A program made the position numbers and the translations under genes. This document shows, piece by piece, positions 9,807 through 61,910 of a stretch of 63,385 nucleotides of DNA. Positions within the stretch are counted from its first letter, which is position 1. The number at the start of each line of letters is the position of its first letter. The stretch covers positions 1 to 63,385 of IMG/VR virus record IMGVR_UViG_3300037751_000116; one strand, 5' to 3'. The stretch comes from a virus. Taxonomy: Duplodnaviria; Caudoviricetes. The notes beneath the pieces are model-generated. The model saw only the letters and a list, made by a program, of their open reading frames with translations, did no database searches and was not told where the DNA came from.

Positions 9807-9908
9807 AATATCCCATAAACCCCCGATTTTAGCCCCGTGGAGCGCCCGTGCTTGGCCTCCGAAGGGGATAGGAGCGCCCGGCCCTATCCCCTATCCCTGC
9901 GCCCGCTC

Positions 9909-10933: not shown

Positions 10934-11196
10934 TACCTAACCCTCCGTGCGTTAGCGATATGCCGCCCGGTCAACAGGACTACCTCGACGCAGAAACAGG
11001 TGTCGGGCATTTCTTTGAGGACATCGGCGGCGATTTCCTCCATGAACGCGCAGCGCATTGATGCCAGTCGACGGATCGTTCTGCGAACCTCGTAGAGTTC
11101 TGCGAACCCTTCGAAGTACGCATAAATGTAAACCACATCTGGCAAGCCGTTGACCGGGCAGATAGTTACAATAGGCAACCAGTGACTGATCCTCAT
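10933..11196 (-). CDS. QueF-like T-fold protein (87 aa)
   Basis: CPVNGLPD matches QueF catalytic Cys/Asp spacing; MEEIAADVL resembles QueF-L HEELAVDL; no NADPH-binding QueF motif; ATGA overlap with the upstream gene. Confidence 0.7.
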   Translation of the reverse strand: MRISHWLPIVTICPVNGLPDVVYIYAYFEGFAELYEVRRTIRRLASMRCAFMEEIAADVLKEMPDTCFCVEVVLLTGRHIANARRVR

Positions 11197-11609
11197 GGTA
11201 GTACTATGCTCATTATCCATCCGTAAATCCAAACAAAGGTTATGGCTAGTCCGAATAACCAGCGCTGTGAGAACCATTCCCAGTCCGGGCCATCAGGCGC
11301 GAAGCGGTGGCGGGTTAGAGGGTAGAGTAGCATCGGACCCCAGGTCTTGCCGTGGGTCGGCACATCTAGGATCAGATGAGACGCCAGAGCTAGAAAGACC
11401 AGCGGACTGCCCGTAGCAACCCACGCAGCCCCGCCCACCAATGCGAGAAAGGCTAGGGTATGGGTCAGGTCGTAAAGTATTGTCGGTTTCGATCTACGGG
11501 GGCCGATAAGAGGTAGGTCAGGCAACACCGCGACCACCGCCCCCAATAGGGGATTACCGTAGGCTAAGCCCACGGTAAAACCGGCGATAGCATGGGAGAA
11601 AACGTCCAT
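11193..11609 (-). CDS. YdjM-like membrane-bound metal-dependent hydrolase
   Basis: SH at N-terminus, LPDL, THT, SHLILD motifs; several hydrophobic segments. Confidence 0.75.
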   Translation of the reverse strand: MDVFSHAIAGFTVGLAYGNPLLGAVVAVLPDLPLIGPRRSKPTILYDLTHTLAFLALVGGAAWVATGSPLVFLALASHLILDVPTHGKTWGPMLLYPLTRHRFAPDGPDWEWFSQRWLFGLAITFVWIYGWIMSIVLP

Positions 11610-11614
11610 CGGAA

Positions 11615-12382
11615 CTAACCCTGATAACCGCGATAATTGGCGGTATCAGGTAGCGTCATAAGCCCTTCACGCCAAGCACGAAGAACCAGCGGGTCGGGAA
11701 ATCCCGCCTTTTCGAAACCGTCCGCACGCAGCACGTTTGCGTGGTTCATATCGGTGGGCGGATATTTTCCGTCGTAGCTCGTATGGGTATAAGCCATCGC
11801 TTCCCAACAGCCGGGAGTATCAAAGGCAAGGTCGACGGTCTCCGCCTTTGTGAGATACATCAACGGCGACATCAAGGTGATAGGGCGGGTGGCCCGATGA
11901 TCATTTCCAAGAGCCTTGTTAATGTAGTCCTGCGCCGCTTCAATGAATACCTTACGGCAGTCATCGTAGTTCGCGTTATCCATCTGGCAGACGCCGGTGT
12001 AGATATAGTAAACCCCTAGCGCCGCCGCCCGGTTGGCTGCGATCGTCAGGAATAGAGCGTTGCGCATCGGCACGAAAGTTTTTTCGCGGCGGTCCCCGAT
12101 CACCTCGTCCATCTGTTCGGCATTCTCATACTGTTCGAGAGGGCCACCGGTAGTAAGAGGGCTGGTACTATGAAGGATGCCGGGCACCTCGATAACTTCG
12201 TGGCTGGAGACTCCCGCCATGGCCGCAACCTTTCGAGCCGCGTCGATTTCAATTGAATGAGTCTGACCGTAGTCAAATGTGATGGCGTGAACCTCGTCGT
12301 GTTCATGCTTTGCCAAGAATAGACAGGTCGTGCTATCCTGCCCGCCCGAAAGGATTACGAGTGCGCGTCGTGCTTTTTTCAT
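11615..12382 (-). CDS. queC: 7-cyano-7-deazaguanine synthase
   Basis: SGGQDS PP-loop, FDYGQ, VPMRN, YDDCR. Confidence 0.93.
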   Translation of the reverse strand: MKKARRALVILSGGQDSTTCLFLAKHEHDEVHAITFDYGQTHSIEIDAARKVAAMAGVSSHEVIEVPGILHSTSPLTTGGPLEQYENAEQMDEVIGDRREKTFVPMRNALFLTIAANRAAALGVYYIYTGVCQMDNANYDDCRKVFIEAAQDYINKALGNDHRATRPITLMSPLMYLTKAETVDLAFDTPGCWEAMAYTHTSYDGKYPPTDMNHANVLRADGFEKAGFPDPLVLRAWREGLMTLPDTANYRGYQG

Positions 12383-12394
12383 AACTCTGGTTCC

Positions 12395-13186
12395 TTATTC
12401 CAGTTCAAGGGTTTTGTGAATTTGGAGTTGAAGCGTGTAGCCGAAATCGAGGCAAGACTTAACCGCCGCTGCCCGGTTCAGGCCGTTTTGGTATTCATCC
12501 TGAACATCGGCGGGCTGAACATAGATCGGTAAGCTCCACCCGCCGTCTCTGCCCTTCATAGGGCGCGCAAGCTGCGGGTTCGCGGTGTGCTTCAGGGCGC
12601 GGATGGGTAGCCCGTCATCGGGGTTGATATTCTCATGGTCAAGGACGTATTTGAAACAGCACGACCGCGCCTCGGTATGCTGGTGGACCTTGCCGGTCTT
12701 AGGGCTGCAAACGATATAAACCCCACGGGTGTCGCCCGCGATGCTGGTGACCGTTCGCCGTAGAAGGAACCCGATACCATCGGGCGGGGGAAGCGTGCCG
12801 TTGGTTTCAATCTGGATGTAGAACCCTTTGTCGATCAGGCACTCAACCAAGGCACGCAGCCCACCGGGTTGCCTGAATGGTTCACCGCCGGTAATCACCA
12901 CCAGCCCATTGTCGTGAATAGGAAGCGCTGAAACTTCGGTGGTCACTTCCTCTGCCGTCATGGTCCTTCGACCAAGGGTATACTCGGTATCGCAGAGAGG
13001 GCATTGAAGGTTGCACCCGGCTAGCCGAATGAAAACGGCGGGGCGACCGCTAAAGGGTCCCTCGCCTTGGATGGTATGAAAGATGGAGTGAACCTCGACA
13101 TCTTGCCGGTAAGATCGGTTGGTCTTTTCAATCGGCTGCGAGTTCAAACGGGTTCCGTCAAACGGACCGGTATAATCTTGGGTCAT
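12395..13186 (-). CDS. queE: 7-carboxy-7-deazaguanine synthase (radical SAM)
   Basis: TIQGEG, CNLQCPLCDT, ITGGEP, IETNG, LQIHK; start re-placed at MTQDY after gagg. Confidence 0.95.
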   Translation of the reverse strand: MTQDYTGPFDGTRLNSQPIEKTNRSYRQDVEVHSIFHTIQGEGPFSGRPAVFIRLAGCNLQCPLCDTEYTLGRRTMTAEEVTTEVSALPIHDNGLVVITGGEPFRQPGGLRALVECLIDKGFYIQIETNGTLPPPDGIGFLLRRTVTSIAGDTRGVYIVCSPKTGKVHQHTEARSCCFKYVLDHENINPDDGLPIRALKHTANPQLARPMKGRDGGWSLPIYVQPADVQDEYQNGLNRAAAVKSCLDFGYTLQLQIHKTLELE

Positions 13187-13274
13187 GATGCCTCGTCGGG
13201 GGTTGCCGCTTAGCGGGAGTTTCCGAAGCCCGCCCGTATTACGGGGCGGGCTGGTGGTAGTATAACGTCGAGGT

Positions 13275-13955
13275 TTATTCAGTGGCGGGTGCCGCCTCGC
13301 TGGGTGGTGCTGCGGGTTCGGTAGCAGGGGCAGCGGGTTCAGCGGCGGGCTTAGGCGCGCGGCCCACCGGGCCGATCCCGTGGAACTTCCGCCACTGGCC
13401 ATACTCAGCGCGCACATTGCCGACGCTGAGACCGGCTTTTTCAGCGAGTTCGATGCACTCCGAAATCGGGGCAGGCGCTTGCTTGGCCGCGCTGACCTGG
13501 TCGAAAATCGCCCACGCCTGCCCGCATTTGGAACCAGCGATAGGATGCAGAATGCCGTTCTGTTTCACTCGCTCGGACTTCTGCGCGGCCTTGGCCGCTT
13601 TGGCTTCCTCGCGTGCTGCCTTGGCCGCTTCTTTCATTTGCGTCTTGACAGTTTTGATGTTGTCACGAGTGGCCTTCAGCGCGACCTTGGCTGCGTCTGA
13701 GTTTTGTTTCGCGGCTTCTTCAGCGGCGTTCGCTTCGACCAGCGCGGCCTGACCTTGGGCGCGGTTCGCCGCGTTGGCCTCGTCGTCGGGGATGGCGTCG
13801 AGTGCGGTCTTGACATTCACTGTATACTGCTTCGCGGTCTTCAAGGCTGTGACGGCGGCGTCGGCTGTGGCCTTGGCCTCGGTAACGGCGGCTTCAGCGA
13901 GATCAACAGGAGACGGCGGGGTGATGGCGTCAGTGGCTTCAACGGTATCGTTCAT
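13275..13955 (-). CDS. Ala-rich coiled-coil protein with C-terminal putative DNA-binding domain
   Basis: Highly biased codon usage; own promoter; GLSVGNVRAEYGQWRK domain. Confidence 0.7.
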   Translation of the reverse strand: MNDTVEATDAITPPSPVDLAEAAVTEAKATADAAVTALKTAKQYTVNVKTALDAIPDDEANAANRAQGQAALVEANAAEEAAKQNSDAAKVALKATRDNIKTVKTQMKEAAKAAREEAKAAKAAQKSERVKQNGILHPIAGSKCGQAWAIFDQVSAAKQAPAPISECIELAEKAGLSVGNVRAEYGQWRKFHGIGPVGRAPKPAAEPAAPATEPAAPPSEAAPATE

Positions 13956-39330: not shown

Positions 39331-39849
39331 ATGAACTATCAGCATCTTAAACTACGACGTCAAAAAGGCCGAAAGATATATCTAACGGCTGAAGAGTTCC
39401 TGTCTGACGCAATCGAATACTTTGAGTGGGCACGCGACAACCCGCTAGAAGAAGAAAAACTCTTTGCGCACCAAGGCGAGGTTACTCGTGCCGTAGTCGA
39501 TAAGCCGCGCCCCTTCACCAAGCAAGCGTTGGCCCTATATCTCGGGGTTCCGGTCAGTCGCTTCGACTGCTACAAATCTCGCACAGGTAGTGACTCGGAG
39601 CCATGGCGCGAAGTCATGGAAATAATCGAACAGGTAATCTATACCCAGAAGTTCGAAAACGCAGTCGCGGGTCTCATGAACGCCGGAATTATAACCCGCG
39701 ATCTGGGATTGACCGACAAGCAAGAAATCGGTGGTATAAAAGATGCCCCGCCAGTTGCGTTCAACATCGTACCAATAGCGAGCGGCACTTTCTTGCCGCC
39801 TGAAGAACCTGACGAACCGGCTGTGATGCGGGCTAGTTCGTCAGGCTAG
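39331..39849 (+). CDS. terS: Terminase small subunit (P22 gp3-like)
   Basis: YFEWARDNPL, RPFT, YTQKFE.A..GLMN..II.RDLGL.DK. Confidence 0.85.
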   Translation: MNYQHLKLRRQKGRKIYLTAEEFLSDAIEYFEWARDNPLEEEKLFAHQGEVTRAVVDKPRPFTKQALALYLGVPVSRFDCYKSRTGSDSEPWREVMEIIEQVIYTQKFENAVAGLMNAGIITRDLGLTDKQEIGGIKDAPPVAFNIVPIASGTFLPPEEPDEPAVMRASSSG

Positions 39850-40294: not shown

Positions 40295-40537
40295 ATGACC
40301 TTAGATCAGCTTATATCCGACAACATGGCTACCTTGATCATGGGGTCATTTGGTCTGGTGGCCACCGTGGTCACCATCCGCCTTACCATGCGTCAGGTGG
40401 TCCGTGATGTCGCATCCTTGACCGGCCGTCTCAACAATCACAGCGACCGCATCAAAGACCTTGAGGTCAAACAGGCGGAGCGACTAGGGTACGAGCGAGC
40501 CATGACCGAACTCAAGCAAAGGATTAAGGTGGCGTAA
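40295..40537 (+). CDS. Small membrane protein with coiled coil
   Basis: RBS gaggt; one TM then heptads. Confidence 0.7.
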   Translation: MTLDQLISDNMATLIMGSFGLVATVVTIRLTMRQVVRDVASLTGRLNNHSDRIKDLEVKQAERLGYERAMTELKQRIKVA

Positions 40538-40887
40538 TGTCTCCAGATAACAACCCTTACTCCAACTTCTTTTCGGGTATGCCATCATGGGTCAGAGGGA
40601 TTGTATTAGCGATGTCGGTTGTACCGCTATCGTTTGCCGTCAGCGGGCAGTTCTTGGGGGTCAGAGTTGGGGATTATCTCGACCGCTACGTTGAAATCCA
40701 GTTCGAGCAAATGCAGCGCGTTACCGATAATTCCGCCGACAAGGTAATAGAGGCTGTCAGCGAACAAGTCGGCGAAATTGAGGAACGCTTAGCGGATACC
40801 TCGAACCGCGTCGAAAGACTTGAGGGGTGGGCTTGTTCGGGAGGCAGAACCGGCCGTCCTGACTTTTGTAAGGGAATAAAGCAATGA
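40537..40887 (+). CDS. Membrane protein with coiled coil and C-terminal Cys pair
   Basis: TM segment; WACSGGRTGRPDFC. Confidence 0.7.
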   Translation: MSPDNNPYSNFFSGMPSWVRGIVLAMSVVPLSFAVSGQFLGVRVGDYLDRYVEIQFEQMQRVTDNSADKVIEAVSEQVGEIEERLADTSNRVERLEGWACSGGRTGRPDFCKGIKQ

Positions 40888-41132
40888 CCCCTTTTGATTA
40901 TCGCCCCGAGTCGTCAGAGGACGAGGACTGGGCCGACAATTGGTTGAGCAACAGCCTTGCTTACCTGAGCGACCGTTTCATCCCCAAGTGGTGCCAGAAC
41001 GGCGACCATTGGACCGTGCGGATTACGCTCTATCTGTGGGCCGACTGCGCCTGCTGTCTATTCTTTCGCGGAGTCACCGCGGGGGTTTCGCTTGCGGCCT
41101 CGGTGGCCGCTCTAATCTACCTCGTATCATAA
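40884..41132 (+). CDS. 82-aa membrane protein with CxxCxxxR motif
   Basis: ATGA coupling; WC...WADCACCLFFRG followed by C-terminal TM. Confidence 0.7.
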   Translation: MTPFDYRPESSEDEDWADNWLSNSLAYLSDRFIPKWCQNGDHWTVRITLYLWADCACCLFFRGVTAGVSLAASVAALIYLVS

Positions 41133-41146
41133 TAGGAGTCCCACAA

Positions 41147-41317
41147 ATGGCTTGTGGTTGCGGTAAAAAGGCGGCTCGTCCGTCCATCAACAAAACTACG
41201 GTAGCTCGCGTCGGTTCGACCACCTCACGGGTCGATACTGCCAAGACCTACCAATCGGCTACGATCAAGAGCGCGCCGACCGCCCCGGTATCTGGTACGA
41301 CCCGGAAAACGGTTTAA
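41147..41317 (+). CDS. 56-aa basic peptide with N-terminal MACGCG
   Basis: RBS aggag; start re-placed from ORF 40940. Confidence 0.7.
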   Translation: MACGCGKKAARPSINKTTVARVGSTTSRVDTAKTYQSATIKSAPTAPVSGTTRKTV

Positions 41318-41323
41318 TGATCC

Positions 41324-42553
41324 GTGGACCTGAATATCCCAGAAGTCTACATGCCTCTGTGGCATGGGGGCTATGAACATTACGCATTCTTTGGCGGTCG
41401 CGGCGGGGCGAAATCCCACGGGGTAGGCGAGGCCACCGTTGCGCTGTCATGCCGATCTGAAGAACGGGTCGTTTGCGGACGTCAATATCAGAACTCTATC
41501 AAGGACTCTGTTAAAGAGCTACTTGAAAAGAAAATCTACTCGATGGGTATGGCGGCTTACTTCAAGTCGACAGACCGTGAGTTGATCAACGTAAGCACGG
41601 GTAGCCGGTTCAGTTTCTTGGGTATGGACCGCAACCCGGAAAGCGCTAAATCGTTAGAGGGTGCTACGTTCTTCTGGGGCGAGGAGGCGCAGACCTTTAC
41701 GAGACGCAGCGTCGAGCTTATCGTTCCTACCATCCGGGCCGCTGGTTCGCGGATGGCTTGGACTTGGAACCCTCGGTTTCGTACGGACGAGGTCGACTCG
41801 ATGTTCCGGGGTCCGCACCCGCCTGAAAACTCCTATATCCGTAACGTAAGTTGGCGAGATAATCCTTGGTTCTATCGAACACGGATGCCTAGCGAGTTCC
41901 GGCGCAGCAAGCTCGCCAAGCCTAAACGTCATGCCCATATCTGGGAAGGCGGATACGACGAGAACCCCGACGCGGCGATCTTTGATAACTGGGCCATCGG
42001 ACGGCCTTATGTCATCCCTGATAAGTGCATCCCGCGCTACGGTATGGATTTCGGCTTTGGTTCCGATCCGAACGCGGTCGTCAAGGTCTATGTCATCGAA
42101 CCAGAGGATTTGGGTCTTGACCCTGACTTCTATATCGGTTTCATTTATATAGCCGCTGAGTCGGTTGGTTATAAGGTTGCAAATAAAGACCTGCCCGCCT
42201 TGATGGACGCTGTGCCCGGCATTCGTGAGTGGAATATTACGGCCGACAGCGCCCGACCTGAAACGATCGACTATGTGAACTCAAAAGGGTTCAATGTATT
42301 CGGTTCGATCAAGGGCGCGGGTTCCGTTAAAAACGGTATCAACTTCATGCAGGGGTACCAAATCCTAGTTGATCCTGACTGCCCCGTTACGGCGGAGGAG
42401 ATCAAAAACTATATGTGGAAGTTGGACCCCAACGACAAGCCGCTGCCTATGCCCGCCGAATATCAGCAAGATCACTGTATTGATGGCGTTCGTTACGCTA
42501 TTGAGGATTTGACTCGCGATGACTACCAAGGCGGTGGCGTCGATTACGTATAA
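41324..42553 (+). CDS. terL: Terminase large subunit (PBSX family)
   Basis: GGRGGAKS, GEEA, TWNP, GMDFGF, ADSARP, DHCIDGVRYA. Confidence 0.95.
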   Translation: MDLNIPEVYMPLWHGGYEHYAFFGGRGGAKSHGVGEATVALSCRSEERVVCGRQYQNSIKDSVKELLEKKIYSMGMAAYFKSTDRELINVSTGSRFSFLGMDRNPESAKSLEGATFFWGEEAQTFTRRSVELIVPTIRAAGSRMAWTWNPRFRTDEVDSMFRGPHPPENSYIRNVSWRDNPWFYRTRMPSEFRRSKLAKPKRHAHIWEGGYDENPDAAIFDNWAIGRPYVIPDKCIPRYGMDFGFGSDPNAVVKVYVIEPEDLGLDPDFYIGFIYIAAESVGYKVANKDLPALMDAVPGIREWNITADSARPETIDYVNSKGFNVFGSIKGAGSVKNGINFMQGYQILVDPDCPVTAEEIKNYMWKLDPNDKPLPMPAEYQQDHCIDGVRYAIEDLTRDDYQGGGVDYV

Positions 42554-42565
42554 AGGACACGACCA

Positions 42566-43867
42566 ATGGCGCTTAGTATCTGGCCGTTCCAGAAAGCCGC
42601 CCCAAACAGGGGGTCTGCTGACGGCCCCAAACAACCGGACGTTTTCTACCTTAATAACGGCGTAGGGGTTGCCGTCGTCACGTGGTCTGACAGCATCGCC
42701 GCGCAACAGGCTATGTCGCATCCGATCGTATACCGGGCATTGCATAAGCTCGCCTCGTCGGTGCAACAAGTCAAGTGGTTCGCTGAGATCGACCCGGATA
42801 CAGCAACAGAAGACCAGGCCGGAAAGGTTGCAATTATTCGCAAGCTGAACGCTGTACTCAATTCGCCAAACGATGACATGACCCCGGAAATGCTCCGGTA
42901 CTGGTTGGCGCTCAACTATGCAGTCTACGGACGCGCCCCGCTTCGCGTTACTCATGGCGCGCTTGACCCCACGGTGGCCAATGGTATCTACACTCTGGAA
43001 ACCAAGCAAATGGTCGCGCATTATAACCAGCGCGGTTCTGTCACCAAGTACGATTATGGCATGGGTGAAACCAAAGAGTCATATCCGTCGTTCTTGACGT
43101 GGAAAAACGAACGCCTGACCAAAGGCTTTGCTGATATGATCTGGCGACCCGGCCTGAAGGGGTACCAGCATCGCACCGATTATAATACGCCAATGCACTC
43201 GCTTGGTTTGCCTGCGCAGGTCATTCGTTCCCTCTTGGTCCGGGCAATCAACACGGCTGAGGGTCACCCGAACGTTCGCTACCTCGTCACCTGTTCTAAA
43301 ACTCTTCAAGAGGAACAGAAAAAGGCACTCAAGCGGTACCTGAACGAAGACCACGGACCTGACGGCCCGGAAAGCGGCAAGGTGCCTATTCTTCAGAACG
43401 CCGCCGATGTGGTAATTCACAAGCTCGACAACGATCTGTCGGACATTCACAGTAAGATGCCTTCTGACGACATGGCACGATTGATTTTTGGCGCTTTCGG
43501 TATCCCTATCGCCCTTGCGGGCATGGGGGCAGCGGATGGCGCTAAGTTCGCTGGTAACTTCATCGAAAGTCGCGCTTCGTTCTGGCAGGATACGGTGGTT
43601 CCTGATTATGTGAGTCCGATCTTTAAGGGCTTGACTCGGGTGCTCTGTCCTATCGGGGTTCGGATCAGTCCTGACCTCGACTCCATCCCGGCGATGGTCG
43701 ATGGTCGCGTTAGCTCGATGTCTAAAGCAAGCGCCGTCAACTTCTTGACCACTGACGAAAAGCGCGAATTGTTCGGGTGGGCCGCGACCACCTTGATACC
43801 TCAGGTACAAGGGGCAACCACAACCCCCGCCGCCGCGCCAACCACGGAGAACCCCCCAAATGAATAA
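42566..43867 (+). CDS. Portal protein (HK97 type)
   Basis: Position after terL; LNSPND, IFGAFGIP, LTTDEKRE. Confidence 0.88.
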   Translation: MALSIWPFQKAAPNRGSADGPKQPDVFYLNNGVGVAVVTWSDSIAAQQAMSHPIVYRALHKLASSVQQVKWFAEIDPDTATEDQAGKVAIIRKLNAVLNSPNDDMTPEMLRYWLALNYAVYGRAPLRVTHGALDPTVANGIYTLETKQMVAHYNQRGSVTKYDYGMGETKESYPSFLTWKNERLTKGFADMIWRPGLKGYQHRTDYNTPMHSLGLPAQVIRSLLVRAINTAEGHPNVRYLVTCSKTLQEEQKKALKRYLNEDHGPDGPESGKVPILQNAADVVIHKLDNDLSDIHSKMPSDDMARLIFGAFGIPIALAGMGAADGAKFAGNFIESRASFWQDTVVPDYVSPIFKGLTRVLCPIGVRISPDLDSIPAMVDGRVSSMSKASAVNFLTTDEKRELFGWAATTLIPQVQGATTTPAAAPTTENPPNE

Positions 43868-44639
43868 CCGTATTTTCTTGACAAAGAAAGAACCTGACCT
43901 GACGCAGCGCGAAACGCTCCAGATCAAGTTCACCCCGGCCACTGACGACGAAATCCGCAAGGCGTTGGGCGACGGTACCGATATTCCAGAGGGATACATT
44001 GCGGGTTGGGCTTCAACGCCCGATCTCGACCACTATCGGCACCGCGTTATGCCGGGAGCCTTTGACGACTCGATTGCTGAAAAGGGTCTTACTGGACCCG
44101 CCGGTATCAAGCTGCTAATCCAGCACGACGCGGGCAAGCCCGCCGGTTTGATCGTGGTTCTAGAGAACCGCAACAACCGGCTCTGGATTGAAGCGCAATT
44201 GAACCTGAAAATCGGGTACGTGCGCGACTATTACGAAGCCGCCAAGATGACCGGCGGTATGAACTTCTCGGTCGGGTTCTACCTTCAGGACTATGAGTTC
44301 AAAACCGACAACGACGATGTGGAGTATCTCCAGATCAACCGAGGCGAGCTTGAAGAAGTTTCCGTTGTCACCTTCCCCGGCAACGCACAAGCTCAAATGA
44401 CTTTTATCAAGAGCGCCCCCGAACAGGACGGCGTCTTTGAAACCCTTTCCGACCTGGAAAAAGCGCTGGTCGCCTCCGGTATCGTGAAGAGCCGGAACAT
44501 CTCGGCGATGATCACCTTGACGGTGAAGAAGAACATCAAATTGTTCCAGCCCAAAGAGACGCCCCGGGTGGTGTCTGACGAAACCCTTGATACGATGCAA
44601 AAGAGTATTTCTGAACTCCTTGCTTTGGTCAAGACTTAA
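43860..44639 (+). CDS. HK97-family prohead protease
   Basis: GWAST, PGAF, LLIQHD, FSVGF, EVSVVTFP. Confidence 0.92.
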   Translation: MNNRIFLTKKEPDLTQRETLQIKFTPATDDEIRKALGDGTDIPEGYIAGWASTPDLDHYRHRVMPGAFDDSIAEKGLTGPAGIKLLIQHDAGKPAGLIVVLENRNNRLWIEAQLNLKIGYVRDYYEAAKMTGGMNFSVGFYLQDYEFKTDNDDVEYLQINRGELEEVSVVTFPGNAQAQMTFIKSAPEQDGVFETLSDLEKALVASGIVKSRNISAMITLTVKKNIKLFQPKETPRVVSDETLDTMQKSISELLALVKT

Positions 44640-44665: not shown

Positions 44666-46108
44666 ATGCGCGATACCACAATTCTGAGCCGGGGCGCTTT
44701 CCTCACCAAAGAGGCACCGCCCATTGACGACAAGATCAAAGAGGCCGGGCTTGAAAAGCTCGCCAAGGATATGTCGGATGCGGTCACCCATATGACCAAA
44801 TTCAAGACCGACTACGAGGCGGACGCAAAGGTTCTCAAAGAACTGCGCGACAAAGTCGAAAGCCTCGGTTCGGTGGACGCTGAGACCAAGGCCGCTCTGC
44901 AAAAGACCGGGACTGATCTGGCAGAGTCTTTGACCAAGCTTCAGGCTTGCGAACAGGCGATTGAAACCCTCAAAAAGGAAATGGATCAACCCATTTTCCG
45001 GGGCGACAAGGACCTGAAGGACCATGACCGGGAAAATGCGATTGCACTGCAGCGCCGCGCCCATATCCATAAGGGCGGCACCCAGCACGATTTCGTTGCC
45101 GATCTGGACAACCTCGTCAATCCGGCTGATTACCGCTCTGCGGTCCACAAGCTTATGAGTGTTGGAACCGAGACCAAGGCGGGTATCATGCGTCAGTTCT
45201 CCGAAGCTGAACGCAAGGCGTTTGACGCGGCCTCGCTCGACAGCGGCTTCTTCAGCCCGGAACTTCTCGGTATCGAGGTTGACTGCGAAATCGAGTGCGC
45301 CTCGTTGCTTGATCTGTACCAGCAAATCTCGGTCAGCCGTTCGACGTTCATGTTCCCCCACGTGGAGAGCTACGGCGACATCGGCCAGTATGACTGCGAT
45401 GCGAAGTGCGACGCTGAGTACGGCCCTGAAGGCAACATTACCTGGAAAAACGGTCAGACCTACGACTTCCGTGGCGTCTTCTGTTTCCAGCGTGACACGC
45501 TGCGCGAAGCCAACTACGACTTGCTCGGCTTCATGATGCGGGCAGCGGCCCGGTCCTACCGGATCAACCGCAACCAAGCCTTGATCACCGGCGACGGTGT
45601 CAACGAACCGATGGGTTGGTTGACCGCAGATTGTTTCACCAAGCTGCAAACGCCCGCCGCCAACCCGACGCACCAAGACCTGCGTCAGTTCTTGGCGTCG
45701 GCTCCGGTTGAGTATGGCCCGGTCACGGCGACGATGCACCAGAATGTGTTTGCGTACTTCGCTTCCATGGTCGACAATACCGGTCGGTTCATCTTTGGCG
45801 ACGGTTTGATGGGCTTCAGCCCCAATGACGTGCGGGACTCCATCCGCATCAGCAACTGTCTGCCCGATGCGACCGCTGGCGGTACCCTCGGTTCGGCTGA
45901 CGATCCTTTCGTCGCTGGCGACTTCATTCTCGCCGCCGGTGTTTGGGAACGAGCCTACGCCGCCGTGAACCATCGCCCGATGTTCATGGAACAGTACGAA
46001 GGCGGCTCCAGTGCATGGTGCGTCAAGTACCAGTTCGGCGCGAAAGACGGCGGCTTTGTCGCTTGCTGCCCCGCCGCTCGCACACTGACCGCCGGTGCCG
46101 GGGGCTAA
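44666..46108 (+). CDS. Major capsid protein (HK97 fold with delta domain), Cys-rich
   Basis: N-terminal coiled coil; ITGDGVNEPMG, DNTGRFIF; strong codon bias. Confidence 0.92.
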   Translation: MRDTTILSRGAFLTKEAPPIDDKIKEAGLEKLAKDMSDAVTHMTKFKTDYEADAKVLKELRDKVESLGSVDAETKAALQKTGTDLAESLTKLQACEQAIETLKKEMDQPIFRGDKDLKDHDRENAIALQRRAHIHKGGTQHDFVADLDNLVNPADYRSAVHKLMSVGTETKAGIMRQFSEAERKAFDAASLDSGFFSPELLGIEVDCEIECASLLDLYQQISVSRSTFMFPHVESYGDIGQYDCDAKCDAEYGPEGNITWKNGQTYDFRGVFCFQRDTLREANYDLLGFMMRAAARSYRINRNQALITGDGVNEPMGWLTADCFTKLQTPAANPTHQDLRQFLASAPVEYGPVTATMHQNVFAYFASMVDNTGRFIFGDGLMGFSPNDVRDSIRISNCLPDATAGGTLGSADDPFVAGDFILAAGVWERAYAAVNHRPMFMEQYEGGSSAWCVKYQFGAKDGGFVACCPAARTLTAGAGG

Positions 46109-50900: not shown

Positions 50901-52403
50901 ATGGCAATTGACAGCCTTAGAGACGGTTTCGTCCGCCTCTGTTTTGATCCGAACGCCAATGTGCTCGGTGAAAGATGCCGGTTGGTACTGGAGGGGCAAA
51001 TGACTGCCACCGGTACTGCAACCGCCGACCAACTGGTCAAGGTCACTTCGGCGCGCGATCTGGACGCCATGTTTGGCGAGGGTTCGGTCATCGGCGAGTC
51101 GCTGAAGGTCGCAATCAACTGCTGCGGAAACGACGCGGTTGAAATCTTTGCAGTACCACGCGACGATGCCGCCACCGCGGTGGCCGCTGAATATACCCTG
51201 ACAATCGTCGGTCCTGCGACTACCGACGGGCGGCTCGATTTCTACTGGGGTGACTCTCAGTGGAACATTTCGGTTCGGGTTGCGGATGGTGACGACGAAA
51301 CTACCATCGCCGCTGCGATCGTGGCCGCGCTGCCTACTGGGTTCCCTTATACCGCAGTAGCCCTTGCCGGTGTGATCACCTTGACCGCTCGCAATGCGGG
51401 CACCGCTGGCAACTTCCTTAACGGGATTGTCAACTGGCACCAGCGCAACGACTATATGCCTGAAGGCGTTACGGCGACTTTTGCGCAAACCGTTGACGGT
51501 GAAACTGATCCGGCCCCGCTCGACTATAGCGCGGTATTCGGTGATTGCTGCCTATGCTGTTGGGCGCTTCTGACCGGCGACGAGGTTTGGCAGGACGGTA
51601 TGGTCGATTTCCTGAACGAGGCGTGGTCCTGTGACAAGCCTCAATGTTTCGGTCACGGCTACACCTACAACAGTGGTTCGCTTGGCGAAATTCTCGCCTC
51701 CGATACCAATTCGGCTACCATTAGCCGCTTGGCCCATTGCGATACCGACTCGAACTTCCCGTGGCTGAAGGTCGCCGCCTATGCAGCCAAGTCGTGCTGC
51801 CTGACGGTCGACAATCCTGAGATCAGTATTCAGGGTCCGAACTACGGGGTTCTGGATTGTATCCGCGCCCCTGAGTCGTGCAGTTCCTGTTTCACCTTCG
51901 ACGAGCAAGAGCAGTTGCGCGACAGCGGCTTTGTGGTTACCGTGCCGGTAAGTGGCGGCTCGGGTGGTTTGACTTCCCCGATGATCACCAACGATATTAC
52001 CAACAACCGGTTCGATGCTGAAGGCCGCGAAAACCTGACTTTCCAGTCGGTTTCTTCCCGCCGCTTGGCCACTGAGACCGCAACCTTGATTGCAGAGCAA
52101 CTGCAACAGTTCAATGGTCTCGGTTACTACACCGACGGCACCAACATCCGCGAAGGCGCACTCGGCGTCAACCGCCGGATGATGCTTGGTACCATGCGGG
52201 CGTGGGTTAAGACGCAGGTCGGAGCGCTGTTCAGTCAGTTCGATGATCTGGACCGCGACTTGACCTTTACGGATGACTTCGAGGTCGCGCCGCGCTGTCA
52301 GGGCGTTCCCGGCAAGCTGTACATGAACCTGATTTATCGGCCTCCGGTTCGCATTCGTCAGGTGGTTGTCAATGCTGTTCCGAAGCTGTTGAACAACTGC
52401 TAA
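50901..52403 (+). CDS. Contractile tail sheath protein, Cys-rich
   Basis: MFGEGS, ITLTARNAGTAGN, EQEQLRDSG; 500 aa, before tube. Confidence 0.88.
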   Translation: MAIDSLRDGFVRLCFDPNANVLGERCRLVLEGQMTATGTATADQLVKVTSARDLDAMFGEGSVIGESLKVAINCCGNDAVEIFAVPRDDAATAVAAEYTLTIVGPATTDGRLDFYWGDSQWNISVRVADGDDETTIAAAIVAALPTGFPYTAVALAGVITLTARNAGTAGNFLNGIVNWHQRNDYMPEGVTATFAQTVDGETDPAPLDYSAVFGDCCLCCWALLTGDEVWQDGMVDFLNEAWSCDKPQCFGHGYTYNSGSLGEILASDTNSATISRLAHCDTDSNFPWLKVAAYAAKSCCLTVDNPEISIQGPNYGVLDCIRAPESCSSCFTFDEQEQLRDSGFVVTVPVSGGSGGLTSPMITNDITNNRFDAEGRENLTFQSVSSRRLATETATLIAEQLQQFNGLGYYTDGTNIREGALGVNRRMMLGTMRAWVKTQVGALFSQFDDLDRDLTFTDDFEVAPRCQGVPGKLYMNLIYRPPVRIRQVVVNAVPKLLNNC

Positions 52404-56412: not shown

Positions 56413-57600
56413 ATGGCTGAGTCCTGCTACCAACCGCAATACCTGCCCGGCAGTTTCAAGCTTGTTCCGTTCAAAGCGATTGAAGCTACGTCAGAGCATG
56501 GACGGCGCGGGGCTGAGGGTGAGTTTCCGTTCGGCGAACAAACCGGATATGCTGACCTCGGTCGGCGTATCCGCACCTATACGATTTCCGCTCGCTTCGA
56601 CAGTAACGACCATATACTGGAGGCTGCGGCGCTTATCGCTGCGGTGGAATTGCCGGGAGCCGGGCCGCTGGTGCATCCCACGCGAGGGGTCATCCTTTCC
56701 GCCGCTTGCCGCTCGCTGCGGGTCCGTGATCGTGTTGAGGACGAGCAAGGCGTAACCTACGTCGATATGGAGTTCGTGGAGGCTAACAACTGGCCTAATG
56801 GGCTTTCCCTCGTGGGGCAGTTGCTCGGTCTCTTGATCAACCCTGTTATCGCGAGTTCTGAGGCTTCGTTCAGTAGCCGCTACCGCCCTGAGACTATCCA
56901 GTCATTTCGTGAGGTGGCGGTTGTGGATGCTGCACAGGTTCAGGTCCAAGCCGTCACTGACGCCTACTCGCTGGCGACGACCGACAAGCCGAACGATACC
57001 ACCCGGAACAGGATCATAAGCGATCTGCAAGCAGTCGTCGTGAACGATGATCTAGCGCGGGATACCGATACGATGCGCCGTGCCCTGACTCTAGGCATGA
57101 CCGCGGTTTCGAGAGAACTCGACGCCCCGGATCAGTACTCGGTATTTCGTTCAATCGCTAACGGGGCGGCTCGTTCAAGCACATTCAGAGCGCCCGCGTC
57201 GGATGCTGAAAACGCTATCTACAGTCACGTCCGCACGGTGGCCGCTGCCTATATGGCTAGGGGGGTTCTCGATACCGATGATCTGAACACTGGCGAAATC
57301 TTTGCGCGTGGCGATGTGATCGAAACCGTAATACAAGGGGAAATGGACTATGCCCGACAAGCGTGTGAAAATGATCTATACTACCAACTCTCAGGTTTCA
57401 GGATTGAAGTTGCCGCGCAGCTTGCTCGCAAAGCATACGCTTCACCTGGTCTTATCCAGTACGATTTCGGCGGGGGAGTCCACCCGCTCGTCGCGGCGTA
57501 TTCAGTCTACGGCGACGCGAAAAGGCACCGGGAACTCGAAAACCTGAACGCGATTGATCGTTACGGGCGGTTCCGCAGAGAAGTGGTAGCGAGAGCATGA
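56413..57600 (+). CDS. Mu N-like DNA circularization / tube initiator protein
   Basis: GSFKLVPF, GRR...EFPF, DLGR, GPLVHPTRG, FVEA. Confidence 0.85.
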   Translation: MAESCYQPQYLPGSFKLVPFKAIEATSEHGRRGAEGEFPFGEQTGYADLGRRIRTYTISARFDSNDHILEAAALIAAVELPGAGPLVHPTRGVILSAACRSLRVRDRVEDEQGVTYVDMEFVEANNWPNGLSLVGQLLGLLINPVIASSEASFSSRYRPETIQSFREVAVVDAAQVQVQAVTDAYSLATTDKPNDTTRNRIISDLQAVVVNDDLARDTDTMRRALTLGMTAVSRELDAPDQYSVFRSIANGAARSSTFRAPASDAENAIYSHVRTVAAAYMARGVLDTDDLNTGEIFARGDVIETVIQGEMDYARQACENDLYYQLSGFRIEVAAQLARKAYASPGLIQYDFGGGVHPLVAAYSVYGDAKRHRELENLNAIDRYGRFRREVVARA

Positions 57601-58904
57601 GTGTAGCCGTTTTCATAGACCGTCAGGAGCTAATCGGTTATACCGACCTGCGGCTCACCCGTTCCAAAAACGAGACCACAGGAGAACTGTCGATTTCGAT
57701 TTTCATGGGCTGGTTTCCTTCAGAACCAGTAATGGGTGAGGTGGTGCGGGGCCAAGAGGTTTTAGTTTACTTTGGCCGTCAGTTGGCGTTCAGCGGCATA
57801 ATCGACCGTAGGAGGGATACGGGCGACCGTTCAGGAGAGCCGGGCACTCAGAGAGGCCAGCAAGGAAACGTGAGTGATCCTAGCATAGGTCCCAACCAAT
57901 ATACCGTCCGCCTGACCTGCCGTGGCAAGACCAAGTTTCTGGTCGATAGTAGTCACCAGCACACCACAGCTACGATCTTGAATACCACCAACCGGGAAGT
58001 TTTCGAGGAACTAATAAAGCCGTGGGATATTCCGCTGCAGTGGGAAGCGGCGGTAACCAAACTGGAGCGGGTCCGCCTTCGTGATGGTGCAATGGTAACC
58101 GACGAGTTACAGCGGGTTGCTGAAATGACCGGCCTCTATTTCTACGAGACCCGCGACGGCAGTCTTAAGGTCGTCGATGGCCCCGAAACCGAACAGGGTG
58201 AGGCGCTGGTACTGGGTACGAATATCCTGAGCTTTAGCACTGACCAAGCGGGCGATAAAGAACGCAGCGAGGTGAAAGTTAAGGGTCAGAAAAATAAACC
58301 CACAGACTGGGGTGAGGCTGCGGTTCTACCGACTTTCAAAAATGCGGCGGATACCTCGGTTCCAAATTATAGCCCGATCAACGTCCAGCTATACGGCGAC
58401 GCCACCGACGAGCTTTTGACCAAGAGAATTGACTACGAGGTTAATAAGCGTTCATCTGACAGCAAGAAAATATCTCTTGAAGTATTCAACGTTTTGCAAA
58501 CCGACGGCACTCACTGGGATATAGGGAAGGTTCATTACGTGGAAATCCCCCCGGCTGGAGTCGTGGGTAATTTCGAGGTAGAACAGATCACCTATACCGT
58601 CGACAATGATAAAACTTTGAAAACCTCTCTGACCCTATCGCCCTTGCCGATCAAAACGGCCGCTCCAGCGGCGCAAGGCGGCGCTCTGGGCGCGCTAGAG
58701 GCTCTTGGCGGGGGGATGCCCACGGGGGCCGGTAGGGCGGCTTCCTTGGGCGTCGGAGCGCTTGCGCAAAGCTGGAGCGGACCCACTCTAGGGGCGGTGC
58801 TTTCTCGGGTGGTAGATTTTCTGGGTGGCGAGGGCTTGGACTCCGTCGAGGACGCCGCTAAGACCTCGCCGCCTCTGACACTGCCAAGGGATATAAACCG
58901 ATGA
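57597..58904 (+). CDS. Baseplate hub (Mu gp44-like)
   Basis: GIID, RGKTKFLVDSS, LVLGTNILS, RSEVKVKGQ. Confidence 0.82.
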   Translation: MSVAVFIDRQELIGYTDLRLTRSKNETTGELSISIFMGWFPSEPVMGEVVRGQEVLVYFGRQLAFSGIIDRRRDTGDRSGEPGTQRGQQGNVSDPSIGPNQYTVRLTCRGKTKFLVDSSHQHTTATILNTTNREVFEELIKPWDIPLQWEAAVTKLERVRLRDGAMVTDELQRVAEMTGLYFYETRDGSLKVVDGPETEQGEALVLGTNILSFSTDQAGDKERSEVKVKGQKNKPTDWGEAAVLPTFKNAADTSVPNYSPINVQLYGDATDELLTKRIDYEVNKRSSDSKKISLEVFNVLQTDGTHWDIGKVHYVEIPPAGVVGNFEVEQITYTVDNDKTLKTSLTLSPLPIKTAAPAAQGGALGALEALGGGMPTGAGRAASLGVGALAQSWSGPTLGAVLSRVVDFLGGEGLDSVEDAAKTSPPLTLPRDINR

Positions 58905-59497
58905 CCGACTTCGCCACCTTTCGTTCGCGCACCCGCGACCTTCAAGACCAGAACGAGCGTGGCGTGTGGGGCGTCCGTCAGGAAGTTCCCGGCGCTGGTG
59001 CCATGATGAGTGTGCGTGGTACCGAAACCTTGGACGAAGAACTACCAATCATGAATTTTGGTTATAGCTTCAATCTGGCCGCTAACAGCAACGCTGAAGT
59101 GATCATGATGAGTCTTGGTAGCGACGTCGACGCCAAGGTGGCAATCCCTACCCTTCCCCGCGATATACAGCACCAATGGGCTGAGGGTACCGGCGGGGTT
59201 CAATCACCTACTGATCCTGAACGACGACTCGAATACAACGACAATGAAACTTGGCTTAAGGACGGGAACTATAAGCTAGGTAACAACAAAGAAGTCGAGG
59301 TTACCGTTGATGGCGGCACCGTGACCATCAACATCACCGGCGGCGCGAATATCAACAGTAGCGGCGACATGGTGATTTCAGCGCCTAGCGTCGAGATCAC
59401 CAGCGCGGCGCTTACGCATAACGGGACCAACGTGGGCGACACCCATGTTCACGGCGGCGTTGAAAGTGGACCCTCAAATACGACAGGACCTCAGTAA
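58901..59497 (+). CDS. Baseplate spike (Mu gp45-like)
   Basis: C-terminal HNGTNVGDTHVHGGV (HxH metal tip). Confidence 0.88.
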   Translation: MTDFATFRSRTRDLQDQNERGVWGVRQEVPGAGAMMSVRGTETLDEELPIMNFGYSFNLAANSNAEVIMMSLGSDVDAKVAIPTLPRDIQHQWAEGTGGVQSPTDPERRLEYNDNETWLKDGNYKLGNNKEVEVTVDGGTVTINITGGANINSSGDMVISAPSVEITSAALTHNGTNVGDTHVHGGVESGPSNTTGPQ

Positions 59498-60636
59498 TGC
59501 CTATTATTTGCGAAGACCTGCCAGATGGAGTTACCGCTTCATGGGGAACATGGACTGGAGCGCTGATCAATAGTATATCTCAGTTCGCCTCTAAAGGCAT
59601 AACCGTAGAGCCGCAGGTAAATCGGTACTTGACACAGGTGATGTTTCAAAGGTCGGGGTCAGCGTCTCTAGGACATGCGATCTCTCTCGTAGTGGTTGAG
59701 CTGTCAGAGGTAAACCCGGGAACAATAATCGACGTAATCGTACCGATTAATGTTGTCTCTGTAATTGATCCACCCGACGGGCAGATATATACTTTGCCGG
59801 TTCCGGTTCTTATGGAGTCGGGAAAGATTTACGGAGTTATATTCGTTAGAACCGACGGCGCTAATAACAGCGCTTTGGTTATATCCTTTCCGGGCGGCAT
59901 AACCCCCAACCCCGACCCTAATGGATACTTTATCCTAAGTGGCGCAATCCGGTATTTGTCTAACAATCCATCCCTTGGTCAAAACGTATTCTTCTCTCCG
60001 GCGGAAACCGATACCGTCGATCTGGTAATCTATAGTGAGGGAGTGGACGAGGTATGCGAAAATACTGACCCCGACCCTTCTAACCCCGACCCGGTATCTG
60101 TTTGCGGAGTTCCCCCTGTAGGACGTCGGCGGCTGTTCTGGTCGACTCAGTCCGAAAGCTGCGGCCTCCGTAGGTCTTGCGGCGCGGAGTGCGGTGAACC
60201 CGGCTTGGGGGTGGAGGCGGGTACCGAAGGCGCAACCATCAGTACCGATAACTGGCTTCGCGGGTTGATGGCAAATATGCTAATGACCGACGCTCGCCTG
60301 CCCGATAATCCATGCGGCTACCGCCCCGGCTCGCAAGGCGGTCATTGGTCGGAAAGCTACATCGACAATGGCCCGCAGGTCGTCGGTACCTTGATGCGGA
60401 CAGTCGAACCGCAAGCCCGGGTTCAAGATGTGGTAAATCTGCTAAAGCAGTACGCACAGATCACCTTACAGAGATTGGTGGCTAGAGGGGCCGCGTTGGC
60501 GGTTGACGTTGACGCTTTCTACGAGGGTAGCAACATTTTCAGGATCGACGCCACAATCACCGGCGTCGATAATCAACAAACCAATGTGTCGGTATCCGGC
60601 GCGCGGTTGTCAAACTCGTGGGTATGGGAACAATAA
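59497..60636 (+). CDS. Baseplate wedge / sheath initiator (Mu gp46-like) with extra N-terminal domain
   Basis: LMTDAR, GGHWSESY, GTLM in the C-terminal half. Confidence 0.7.
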   Translation: MPIICEDLPDGVTASWGTWTGALINSISQFASKGITVEPQVNRYLTQVMFQRSGSASLGHAISLVVVELSEVNPGTIIDVIVPINVVSVIDPPDGQIYTLPVPVLMESGKIYGVIFVRTDGANNSALVISFPGGITPNPDPNGYFILSGAIRYLSNNPSLGQNVFFSPAETDTVDLVIYSEGVDEVCENTDPDPSNPDPVSVCGVPPVGRRRLFWSTQSESCGLRRSCGAECGEPGLGVEAGTEGATISTDNWLRGLMANMLMTDARLPDNPCGYRPGSQGGHWSESYIDNGPQVVGTLMRTVEPQARVQDVVNLLKQYAQITLQRLVARGAALAVDVDAFYEGSNIFRIDATITGVDNQQTNVSVSGARLSNSWVWEQ

Positions 60637-60638
60637 AA

Positions 60639-61910
60639 ATGGCTTGCAATATAGAACGTCCGACCCCGCAAGAGCTATTCGACCGCTACCGGAACCTGTT
60701 TCAAAATACTGTGCTTGGTGGCGCTAGCGTGATCCCGGAAAGCAACGAGTGGTACGCTATCAGCGTTAACTATGCGATGGCTGAAGAGTTCTACGCTATC
60801 TCAGAACAGGCATGGAAAGAACGCGACCCTCGTCAGGCGTGCTGTGACAACCTGATTGCTATGGGCGCTCGTGACGGGGTCTATCCACTCCCGGCGCAGC
60901 CCGCGCAAGGTTACATCAAGTTAACCGGTGTTGCTAATACCATCCTGCCTACCCCTCTGGAGTTCACAGTGGGCGATCTGCAATACGTGACCGCTCTTGA
61001 CGAAACTCAGCCCGGTTCGCTAGACGATAACGGTTCGGCGGTTATCCGGGTCCGGGCGGTTGTTCCGGGCGAGGCGGGCAACATCACCAACGAGACCACC
61101 GGGACCCTCAATACCGTCGTAGAGGGGGTGGATAGCGAAGTGGAGGTTTGCGGAGGCACCTTCTGTAACGGCTCCGACTCTGAAGAGTGCGAGATTTTCC
61201 GTCAACGGTACCTGCGTCGGTTGCAGGTTCAGCCCCGCGCGACCAACCGCTGGTTACAGGACAAAATGCTTGAATGGCCTTGCGCCACTCGAGCCATCAC
61301 CCGTGGCGGCAACTGCCTTACCTGCAACTGCGAAAGCCCGGCTCCAGTCACCGGTAGCGCAAACGGTTCCTGTCAGGATTGCGGATGCGTCGAGGGTGGC
61401 GGGTCCATGCACTTCTACCTGATGTTTGACAACTCGTTCCCTAATGGGATAGCGCCGCGAAGCGTGCTTGACGAGGTCGAAGAGTGGCTGTTCGGTTCGC
61501 CGCAAGGCTTTGGTCTGGGTCAAGTCGAAATCGGGGTTTGCGGACGGCTGTATTCAGTTACCGGAGTTCCTACCAATGTCCGGGTCGACATTGGGGATTG
61601 CGTATCCTCGGTGGCCCTCTCAAATGCCCGCGCGACCGTTGAAGAGTTCTTTACAACAATGGTACCATCGCAGCCTATTGAGGCGGCGGTTCTGGCAACC
61701 AGCCTGCAACGGGTTTTGGGCGTATCGGATGTCAGCGTCAGCCTTGAACTTGTCGACCCAGAGGATGGTTACGGGCAACCCGACTGCCCGGAATGTGACG
61801 GCAACGTATTCGTATCGCCGTGCGGTATAGAGCCGGATTGTGATTATGTCCTGACCTTGAATGACGTGATCATAACCAGCGCCGTAGCCAGTCAGGGGGG
61901 ATGCCCGTAA
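60639..61910 (+). CDS. Baseplate J-like wedge protein (Mu gp47-like)
   Basis: RPTPQEL, AQGYIKLTG, PGEAGN, GSDSE..E.FRQR. Confidence 0.88.
   Translation: MACNIERPTPQELFDRYRNLFQNTVLGGASVIPESNEWYAISVNYAMAEEFYAISEQAWKERDPRQACCDNLIAMGARDGVYPLPAQPAQGYIKLTGVANTILPTPLEFTVGDLQYVTALDETQPGSLDDNGSAVIRVRAVVPGEAGNITNETTGTLNTVVEGVDSEVEVCGGTFCNGSDSEECEIFRQRYLRRLQVQPRATNRWLQDKMLEWPCATRAITRGGNCLTCNCESPAPVTGSANGSCQDCGCVEGGGSMHFYLMFDNSFPNGIAPRSVLDEVEEWLFGSPQGFGLGQVEIGVCGRLYSVTGVPTNVRVDIGDCVSSVALSNARATVEEFFTTMVPSQPIEAAVLATSLQRVLGVSDVSVSLELVDPEDGYGQPDCPECDGNVFVSPCGIEPDCDYVLTLNDVIITSAVASQGGCP

Follow-up and report, generated by a model that had tools for sequence, protein, structure and literature searches.

An invariant CxxC-arginine motif in a small tail-anchored membrane protein of Milano-like myoviruses: a candidate factor for virion disulfides

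DsbB and VKOR are membrane proteins in which a membrane helix begins with a CxxC. DsbB has four membrane helices, a periplasm-facing active site and a quinone pocket formed from several helices (passages of PMC4555120). In the Escherichia coli enzyme the residue at position CXXC+4, R48, stabilises the charge-transfer complex between Cys44 and quinone, while the corresponding residue of VKOR is aromatic (human Y139, Mycobacterium tuberculosis W146) and functionally important (passages of PMC11208910). On the phage side, cryo-electron microscopy of Milano and 7-7-1 has revealed that dozens of disulfide-bond classes hold these virions together; the networks are extensive, the robustness of the particles is sensitive to dithiothreitol, and other myophages are reported without comparable cysteine content (passages of PMC10491603 and PMC12796354). 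The title of a further paper names the Milano tail disulfide network (PMC10811340), and Parabacteroides phage PD491P1 has another disulfide-rich virion. The source of the oxidising power is not stated in the available passages of the two Milano papers (PMC10811340, PMC10491603) or of the 7-7-1 paper (PMC12796354). According to the available part of a 2026 paper, which also draws a comparison with the cytoplasmic disulfide pathway of poxviruses, no dedicated disulfide-making machinery has been described in phages (PMC13576161), and our full-text literature searches listed no relevant description of a tail-anchored CxxC protein or a DsbB-like protein from phages. Here we analyse the 63,385-nucleotide virus record IMGVR_UViG_3300037751_000116 (Caudoviricetes; the whole record is called the window below) and, within it, the gene P0001 (the name also stands below for the corresponding gene of other genomes), which encodes an 82-amino-acid (aa) membrane protein with a CxxC-Arg motif.

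The Milano/7-7-1-like lineage of myoviruses has P0001 among its core genes; it lies in the midst of morphogenesis genes and is not annotated as a virion protein. Its translation starts with an acidic N-terminal part that has no signal-like hydrophobic stretch or signal peptide, continues through C37 to C55-A-C57-C58-L-F-F-R62, and ends with 20 uncharged residues (63-82). This bears out what the initial annotation had read from the letters of this one sequence, namely a C-A-C-C-L-F-F-R at the start of a C-terminal hydrophobic helix together with one upstream cysteine. The same annotation had likened the motif to the active site of DsbB and had allowed that so short a match could be due to chance. 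For one sequence the caution was justified: C..C...R arises in 134 of 20,000 composition-preserving shuffles of the protein, and the 95 open reading frames (ORFs) of the window hold two further such motifs against 0.45 expected, so that its presence in a single sequence is weak evidence. Chance does not, however, account for a motif that is invariant across 74 homologues.

These homologues came from a family profile search of 1.84 billion representatives at a cut-off of E<=1e-3, which yielded 81 proteins, five of them long repetitive proteins unrelated to the family; a word-based search found merely three relatives of P0001. The remaining 76 proteins and P0001-P0005 gave 81 short sequences for inspection, 77 of which contain C..C...R, the other four diverging or stopping before the motif. 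P0001 itself is scored by the family hidden Markov model (HMM) at E 6.7e-37. In the 74-row alignment (A3) C55, C58 and R62 are the sole invariant columns, with R62 always Arg and never Lys (74/74), and C37, C57, G63 and G67 are conserved at 90% or more. The conservation of the two cysteines and the arginine, which the initial annotation had named as a check on its proposal, is therefore borne out in these 74 rows, and the upstream cysteine is retained in at least 90% of the rows. In the N-terminal cap domain the alignment shows conserved positions at P3, Y6, P8, W16, N19, S22-N23, A26, P34, C37 and H42-W43-T44, and H42 and D54 are frequent in the family.

A larger set of 117 distinct family cores, made up of proteins and translated loci chosen for carrying the motif, allowed us to follow the accessory cysteines. 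C37 occurs together with C57 in 111 cores, five lack the two, and one has C57 only. The joint loss requires three changes on a quick tree, at least two of which are forced by well-supported branches, and the CxxC and the Arg persist where C37 and C57 are gone. The first x of the CxxC is Pro in 76/117 cores, and C-P-C-C is the prevailing form; CPxC at a helix N-terminus is an arrangement typical of redox-active dithiols. In the membrane helix G63 is found in 109/117 cores and G67 in 114/117, and position 71 is Gly, Ala or Ser in 97/117. Read together, the alignments describe a family in which CxxC-x3-R never varies, a pair of accessory cysteines is present and the membrane helix resembles a glycine zipper. 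We defined it as proteins of ~50-120 aa with an upstream Cys, CxxC-x3-R-G and a G-x3-G membrane helix that ends the protein, and P0001 has all of these features. No fused or longer forms turned up in a search for them, weak evidence that there are none, and the matches of a near-length search were named only 'hypothetical protein'. One further candidate, in a Bacteroidaceae locus (L054), was discarded as a chance, out-of-frame match.

The AlphaFold2 model built on the 74 sequences has a predicted local distance difference test score (pLDDT) of 92.5 and a predicted template modelling score of 0.62, and consists of helices at residues 20-32 and 43-51, a loop at 52-55 and a long helix at 56-81. 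A first model built on four sequences was poor (pLDDT 63.6) and gave no Foldseek matches. Since the long helix of the better model starts at residue 56, the CxxC is placed at the N-terminal end of the membrane helix. Helix periodicity would put C55, C58 and R62 on one face and C57 on the opposite one, towards the cap domain that bears C37. Across the 74 members a median of 24 residues follow R62, with 0.14 charged residues among the first 18 of them, and Lys or Arg occurs at the extreme C-terminus in only 20/74, as against the invariant R62 on the N-terminal side. Given the positive-inside rule and the fact that the protein ends with the helix, the cap domain probably faces the cytoplasm. The charge pattern thus fits the topology proposed initially, in which a protein with a tail anchor and no signal peptide would expose its cysteine motif to the cytoplasm. 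The 7-7-1 homologue is annotated with one transmembrane segment (TMHMM, Phobius). P0001 encodes a genuine and conserved inner-membrane protein, tail-anchored with a single pass, whose family is undescribed. A two-copy complex prediction, for which no controls were run, scored 0.01 and bears neither way on oligomerisation.

We next consider whether this family belongs to a known group of oxidoreductases. The spacing of the motif is that of R48 at CXXC+4 in DsbB (a passage of PMC11208910), and its position at the start of a membrane helix is the same as well, which is what a true but highly reduced DsbB or VKOR homologue would show. However, the stretch in common is just eight residues, and P0001 has one helix rather than four. 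Scans of P0001 and the 74 aligned members against Pfam, PHROGs and NCBIfam assigned no family; the sole match in each library at E<=0.01 came from one single member, in Pfam to UL45, and 0/74 members matched DsbB, VKOR or Erv1/ALR in Pfam at that threshold. Six-frame searches of the window gave no match to DsbB (PF02600; controls positive in 6/14 genomes), VKOR (PF07884; controls positive in three genomes), thioredoxin (PF00085) or glutaredoxin (PF00462; controls positive in 13/14 genomes for each of the last two). The Erv1/ALR model (PF04777) found nothing in the window either, though its control was positive nowhere, and Pfam scans of 71 window ORFs detected no thiol-oxidoreductase family. 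Structure comparisons did not favour kinship with DsbB or VKOR either: the model of pLDDT 92.5 had no match in the PDB by Foldseek and none in BFVD, the best VIA-align score was Z 3.2 with none of the matches listed reaching Z 5, and no DsbB, VKOR or Erv/ALR protein was among the 50 matches listed. The ESM Atlas gave no match above 0.82. P0001 is not a member of DsbB or VKOR, because there is no profile match, one helix instead of four and no fold match, and we regard descent by extreme reduction as scarcely credible. What stands of the initial proposal of a DsbB-like oxidase is the local arrangement and not the kinship: in primary structure P0001 locally reproduces the 'CXXC+4 Arg' of DsbB.

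The setting in which the family occurs offers support beyond that available to the initial annotation, since P0001 is a core gene of a phage lineage with extensive virion disulfide networks. Judged by its genes, the window phage is a near-complete myovirus (94% of the genome) related to Milano and 7-7-1. Its major capsid protein (MCP) shares 63% identity with the capsid proteins of two Synechococcus phages and ~50% with those of the Agrobacterium phages Milano, 7-7-1 and OLIVR4. Its virion proteins are rich in cysteine (MCP 11/480, sheath 18/500, tube 4/138, baseplate wedge 20/430 and the protein p471 17/471 residues). The sheath of 7-7-1 has 16 Cys, and seven homologous sheaths of about the same length in other phages (phiAP1, SfV, EPP-1, phiP27, PG1, a Vibrio phage and a Ralstonia phage) have 2-4. 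Among 50,697 phage records only six have an MCP of the window type, and these are exactly the six that have a member of the P0001 family.

In Milano the family is represented by gp4 (Milano_004, 81 aa, 55.6 bits with the family HMM), whose gene lies, like P0001, directly before those of a 42-aa MGCGCG 'virion-associated protein' and TerL. Gene 110 of 7-7-1 belongs to the same family and occupies the same place before an MGCGCG protein and TerL. The 7-7-1 and OLIVR4 homologues are 92-94% identical to Milano_004. Milano gp4 and the product of 7-7-1 gene 110 differ from P0001 in a shorter N-terminus that lacks the NPF-x-YRP / DWEDNW part. Milano_004 is annotated as 'hypothetical protein' and the 7-7-1 homologue as 'putative membrane protein', with neighbours called 'structural protein'; we found no mention of Milano gp4 in the available passages of the Milano papers PMC10811340 and PMC10491603.

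The association extends to uncultured phages. With the window MCP we found 38 IMG/VR loci (54-76% identity), and P0001 is present in 23/23 of the loci that hold DNA 5' of a complete TerL, the other 15/38 having no room for it; full-length MCPs in the IMG/VR relatives have 10-13 Cys. Four complete and more distant relatives (G001-G004) keep P0001 elsewhere, either behind another TerL or as the last gene of an endolysin cluster. Their sheaths have 10-15 and their MCPs 7-8 Cys, and the wedge homologues of G001, G002 and G004 have 14-16. The other window genes common to three or four of these genomes (phmmer E<=1e-5) are all virion or morphogenesis genes. As an observation in its own right, the cysteine-rich virion trait extends to the window phage (44666-63316) and to uncultured relatives (G001-G004, L107-L122). 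Since the near kin of the window phage are Synechococcus phages, whose sheath is 68% identical, the trait is not bound to an Agrobacterium host, contrary to the suggestion of one paper. For Yong-L2-223 and Ssp-JY38 no papers were found in the literature.

Taken together, the conservation of the motif, the cysteine-rich virions, the co-occurrence of the two and the lack of another candidate found in the genome lead us to propose that P0001 may be a cytoplasm-facing, membrane-anchored thiol-disulfide factor for virion disulfides, a reading to which we assign a probability of about 0.35. In such a mechanism a CxxC thiol/disulfide would be placed at the membrane face, with R62 stabilising the C58 thiolate. 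The C37-C57 pair would relay oxidising equivalents to the cysteine-rich virion proteins as they assemble in the cytoplasm, and the electrons would leave for an acceptor in the membrane. The simplest such acceptor would be the quinone pool, on which DsbB and VKOR also draw. The steps that lead from a conserved CxxC-Arg membrane protein in disulfide-rich phages to an oxidase, and from there to quinone, are ones that we infer. The most far-reaching form of the proposal, that P0001 is the first phage-encoded disulfide machinery, a single-pass, cytoplasm-facing oligomer that has converged on the CxxC+4-Arg chemistry of DsbB and uses the quinone pool of the host to drive the oxidation of cysteine-rich capsid, sheath and baseplate proteins within a reducing cytoplasm, is in our estimation unlikely. 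If true, it would explain the disulfide networks of the Milano type, and P0001 would be by far the smallest disulfide-generating catalyst known.

Several points weigh against a role in virion disulfides. Activity, cofactor, topology and oligomer are all putative. One membrane helix alone cannot form a quinone pocket of the DsbB type, to which several helices contribute (passages of PMC4555120). The co-occurrence concerns one lineage and is thus confounded by shared ancestry, and virion disulfides could arise spontaneously after lysis (a passage of PMC13576161). A fair alternative is that the four cysteines bind metal instead. The remaining points come from copies of the gene away from cysteine-rich virions. 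Nine intact orphan copies occur in alphaproteobacteria, mostly Paracoccus (among L043-L053), at unrelated chromosomal sites that have no phage genes in their vicinity, and some genomes contain two or three of them. Their median ratio of nonsynonymous to synonymous substitution rates is 0.13 over the 30 computable pairs of 36, which indicates purifying selection, and the protein can therefore work without virions. The homology between these loci covers the ORF and ~100 bases upstream, and is longer between a few pairs. An NDH-2-like gene 5' of one Paracoccus copy (L043) was considered as a link to quinone and rejected, as its conservation does not extend to the remaining eight orphan loci. Finally, a Nitratireductor prophage (L045) and an IMG/VR locus (L030) carry P0001 and an MGCNCG gene beside an HK97-type MCP with 0 Cys, so that in this mosaic the gene is separated from cysteine-rich capsids; two large upstream ORFs are cysteine-rich (14/476 and 21/800). 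The layout of this prophage type (L045:96-8793, L030:16-7904), in which P0001 and the MGCNCG gene are preceded by the two cysteine-rich ORFs and followed by an HK97-type head module free of cysteine, is recorded here as a separate observation.

These copies fit a different account, in which the cysteines are structural. They would make up a site for Zn, Cu or Fe-S, or form permanent disulfides, and would fix the cap domain to the membrane helix. The protein would have some other late task at the membrane, for instance to anchor or regulate head assembly or packaging there or to modulate a host membrane complex, with no role in virion disulfides. Both the orphan Paracoccus copies and the cysteine-free capsid proteins of L045 and L030 are consistent with a function that has nothing to do with virion disulfides, and the tight linkage of P0001 to TerL (32/49 loci) and the portal gene (25/49) also speaks for this account. 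Four conserved cysteines together with the frequent H42 and D54 could supply ligands, and the cytoplasmic location would favour metal sites over disulfides. A sequence search of the PDB returned only two matches, both non-significant (E ~2), to a GH127 enzyme with the same C-x17-C-x-C-C spacing as P0001 and to the zinc ribbon of eIF2-beta; we take both to be zinc-binding proteins or sites. On the other hand, a four-ligand site should lose all its ligands jointly, whereas here the loss of C37 and C57 leaves the CxxC and the Arg in place. The strictness of the Arg exceeds what a topology signal needs, and P0001 is kept in G001-G004 even though it lies there away from its TerL neighbourhood. We consider this account a serious possibility, at odds below even.

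The orphan copies also bear on a third explanation, the sequestration or regulation of a cytoplasmic partner at the membrane in the manner of short membrane-anchored anti-sigma factors, with the cysteines acting as a redox sensor. The architecture, in which a single membrane helix comes after a short helical domain in the cytoplasm, would suit such a protein, and the Paracoccus orphans share an upstream element, GCAACTT-N16-CGTT, that resembles the consensus of promoters for extracytoplasmic function sigma factors. However, none of the 74 members matches an anti-sigma family in Pfam or NCBIfam, and no sigma-factor gene was evident by eye, with no family scan, among ORFs of at least 100 aa near the orphans. 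The cysteine spacing of P0001 also differs from H-x3-C-x2-C, the motif of zinc anti-sigma domains. We regard a regulator of this kind as very unlikely.

The coordinates of P0001 and of the other features of the window are collected in Table 1. P0001 is one of several consecutive small genes that separate TerS from TerL, and its start overlaps the stop codon of the preceding gene (ATGA at 40884-40887). The preceding 116-aa protein has homologues 5' of P0001 in L030 and L045 and is not conserved in Milano. Of the 49 loci with P0001, 32 have TerL directly downstream, and a portal gene follows in 25. The MGC[GN]CG family, to which the 56-aa protein between P0001 and TerL belongs, comprises proteins of 42-70 aa that end in a basic ...RK.V tail; its gene lies between P0001 and TerL in nine loci and between TerL and the portal gene in 18, and is thus found in 27/32 TerL-linked loci, with four of the five exceptions ending at a contig edge. 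The Milano and 7-7-1 members are annotated as virion or structural proteins (Milano_005 is L093:4159-4287). A 125-aa ORF at 40940-41317 is an out-of-frame run across P0001, and only its last 56 codons, which correspond to the MACGCG gene, look real.

Table 1. Features of the window referred to in the text, with P0001 and its parts first.
Feature	Coordinates	Strand	Remarks
P0001, 82 aa	40884..41132	+	ATG 40884, TAA 41130-41132; belongs to an unnamed family of phage membrane proteins with a tail anchor
Shine-Dalgarno-like AAGGGA	40870..40875	+	nine bases 5' of the P0001 start; read from sequence
N-terminal acidic cap domain, residues 1-54	40884..41045	+	alignment; AlphaFold2 model
Codon of C37	40992..40994	+	accessory Cys covarying with C57; 117 family cores
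C55-A-C57-C58-L-F-F-R62, CxxC with Arg at CxxC+4	41046..41069	+	invariant columns; start of long helix
C-terminal membrane helix, residues 63-82	41070..41129	+	G63-x3-G67-x3-small, no tail after it; alignment, charge pattern
TerS	39331-39849		
116-aa protein	40537..40887	+	N-terminal membrane helix, coiled coil, C-terminal C-x10-C; translationally coupled to P0001
56-aa 'MACGCGKK...' protein	41147..41317	+	MGC[GN]CG family, travels with P0001 and TerL
TerL	41324..42553	+	Terminase_3 and Terminase_3C (Pfam); most frequent gene directly downstream of P0001
Portal	42566-43867		
Protease	43860-44639		
MCP	44666..46108	+	11 Cys; ~50% identity with its counterparts in Milano, 7-7-1 and OLIVR4
Tail sheath	50901..52403	+	18 Cys (3.6%)
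Baseplate genes	56413-61910		
Baseplate wedge protein	60618..61910	+	20 Cys (4.7%)
7-deazaguanine synthesis/insertion set	8877-13417	-	Tgt-like, GTP cyclohydrolase, QueD, QueC, QueE
Two-helix holin-like gene	2114-2338		
i-spanin-like gene	2325-2564		
o-spanin-like lipoprotein gene	2455-2721		LTAC lipobox; out-of-frame overlap with the i-spanin gene
Endolysin	2718-3455		PG_binding_1 domain
DNA polymerase, helicase, primase	elsewhere in the window		

This setting is also relevant to the possibility that P0001 is a lysis-timing protein, that is a holin-like protein, an antiholin or a partner of one, which would oligomerise through its glycine zipper and use its cysteines as a switch responding to redox state or membrane potential. 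It is a small membrane protein with G-x3-G-x3-small, in five of the 49 loci (L007, L008, L024, L025 and L028) its gene comes after those of an endolysin of the amidase type and of small membrane proteins, and in the window it follows membrane-anchored coiled-coil proteins, one of which has a sub-threshold match to XhlA. However, a separate and complete lysis cassette with a holin-like gene, an overlapping spanin pair and an endolysin lies far away at 2114-3455, and P0001 is therefore not the holin of this phage; reading the TerS-TerL block as the lysis cassette was dropped once this one had been found. Furthermore, P0001 has no charged C-terminal tail, its cap domain is far better conserved than is usual in holins, and it is retained as a core gene only with structural genes. 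A part in the timing of lysis is, in our view, improbable.

A few other features of the window are reported as observations. The genes before P0001 (39927-40887) encode three single-pass membrane proteins of 76, 80 and 116 aa. The first has a CxxC...CxxC ribbon and the second is the coiled-coil protein with the XhlA match; of the three, only the 116-aa protein has relatives in some other loci. A cupin protein encoded at 31246-31743 matches the PHROG family named 'cysteine dioxygenase' (E 1e-49) and is a further thiol-related gene in a cysteine-rich phage. The 7-deazaguanine gene set suggests modified DNA.

A DsbB-like mode of working of P0001 is unproven, yet it is more plausible than could be known from the initial annotation. 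The gene is a concrete candidate for virion-disulfide formation that can be tested in culturable phages of Agrobacterium and Synechococcus PCC 7002. Should the protein prove to be an oxidase, DsbB-like chemistry would be feasible with a one-helix protein, and a compact means of introducing disulfides in the cytoplasm of bacteria would be at hand. Should it not, the family still marks a conserved and unexplained late-cycle membrane step in this lineage.

Collectively, our results allow P0001 to be set against the described systems. Like DsbB, it carries a CxxC where a membrane helix begins and an Arg at CXXC+4 (invariant in 74/74 members), as well as a second cysteine pair, here of putative redox role, and it is embedded in the membrane beside the quinone pool. 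Unlike DsbB, with its four helices and periplasmic active site, it has one helix and a motif that is probably cytoplasmic; its second pair includes C57, which lies inside the CxxC, whereas that of DsbB lies in a separate periplasmic loop, and there is no sequence or fold relationship between the two. With VKOR it shares a membrane CxxC at a helix start and a distinctive residue at CXXC+4, which in VKOR is functionally important, but VKOR is a four-helix bundle with an aromatic residue at that position, where P0001 has one helix and an Arg. The pathway of poxviruses and other large DNA viruses, which uses the Erv1/ALR-type oxidase E10R, provides a parallel of another kind, since a small, virus-encoded, membrane-associated CxxC protein is proposed to form virion disulfides in the cytoplasm in both cases. 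E10R works with small partners and has an FAD (flavin adenine dinucleotide)-binding helical-bundle fold; no such bundle is recognisable in P0001 from the structure matches listed, and the host is bacterial. If P0001 acts on virion disulfides, it would thus be an inverted minimal functional analogue of DsbB and a counterpart of the poxvirus cytoplasmic pathway, being a relative of neither.

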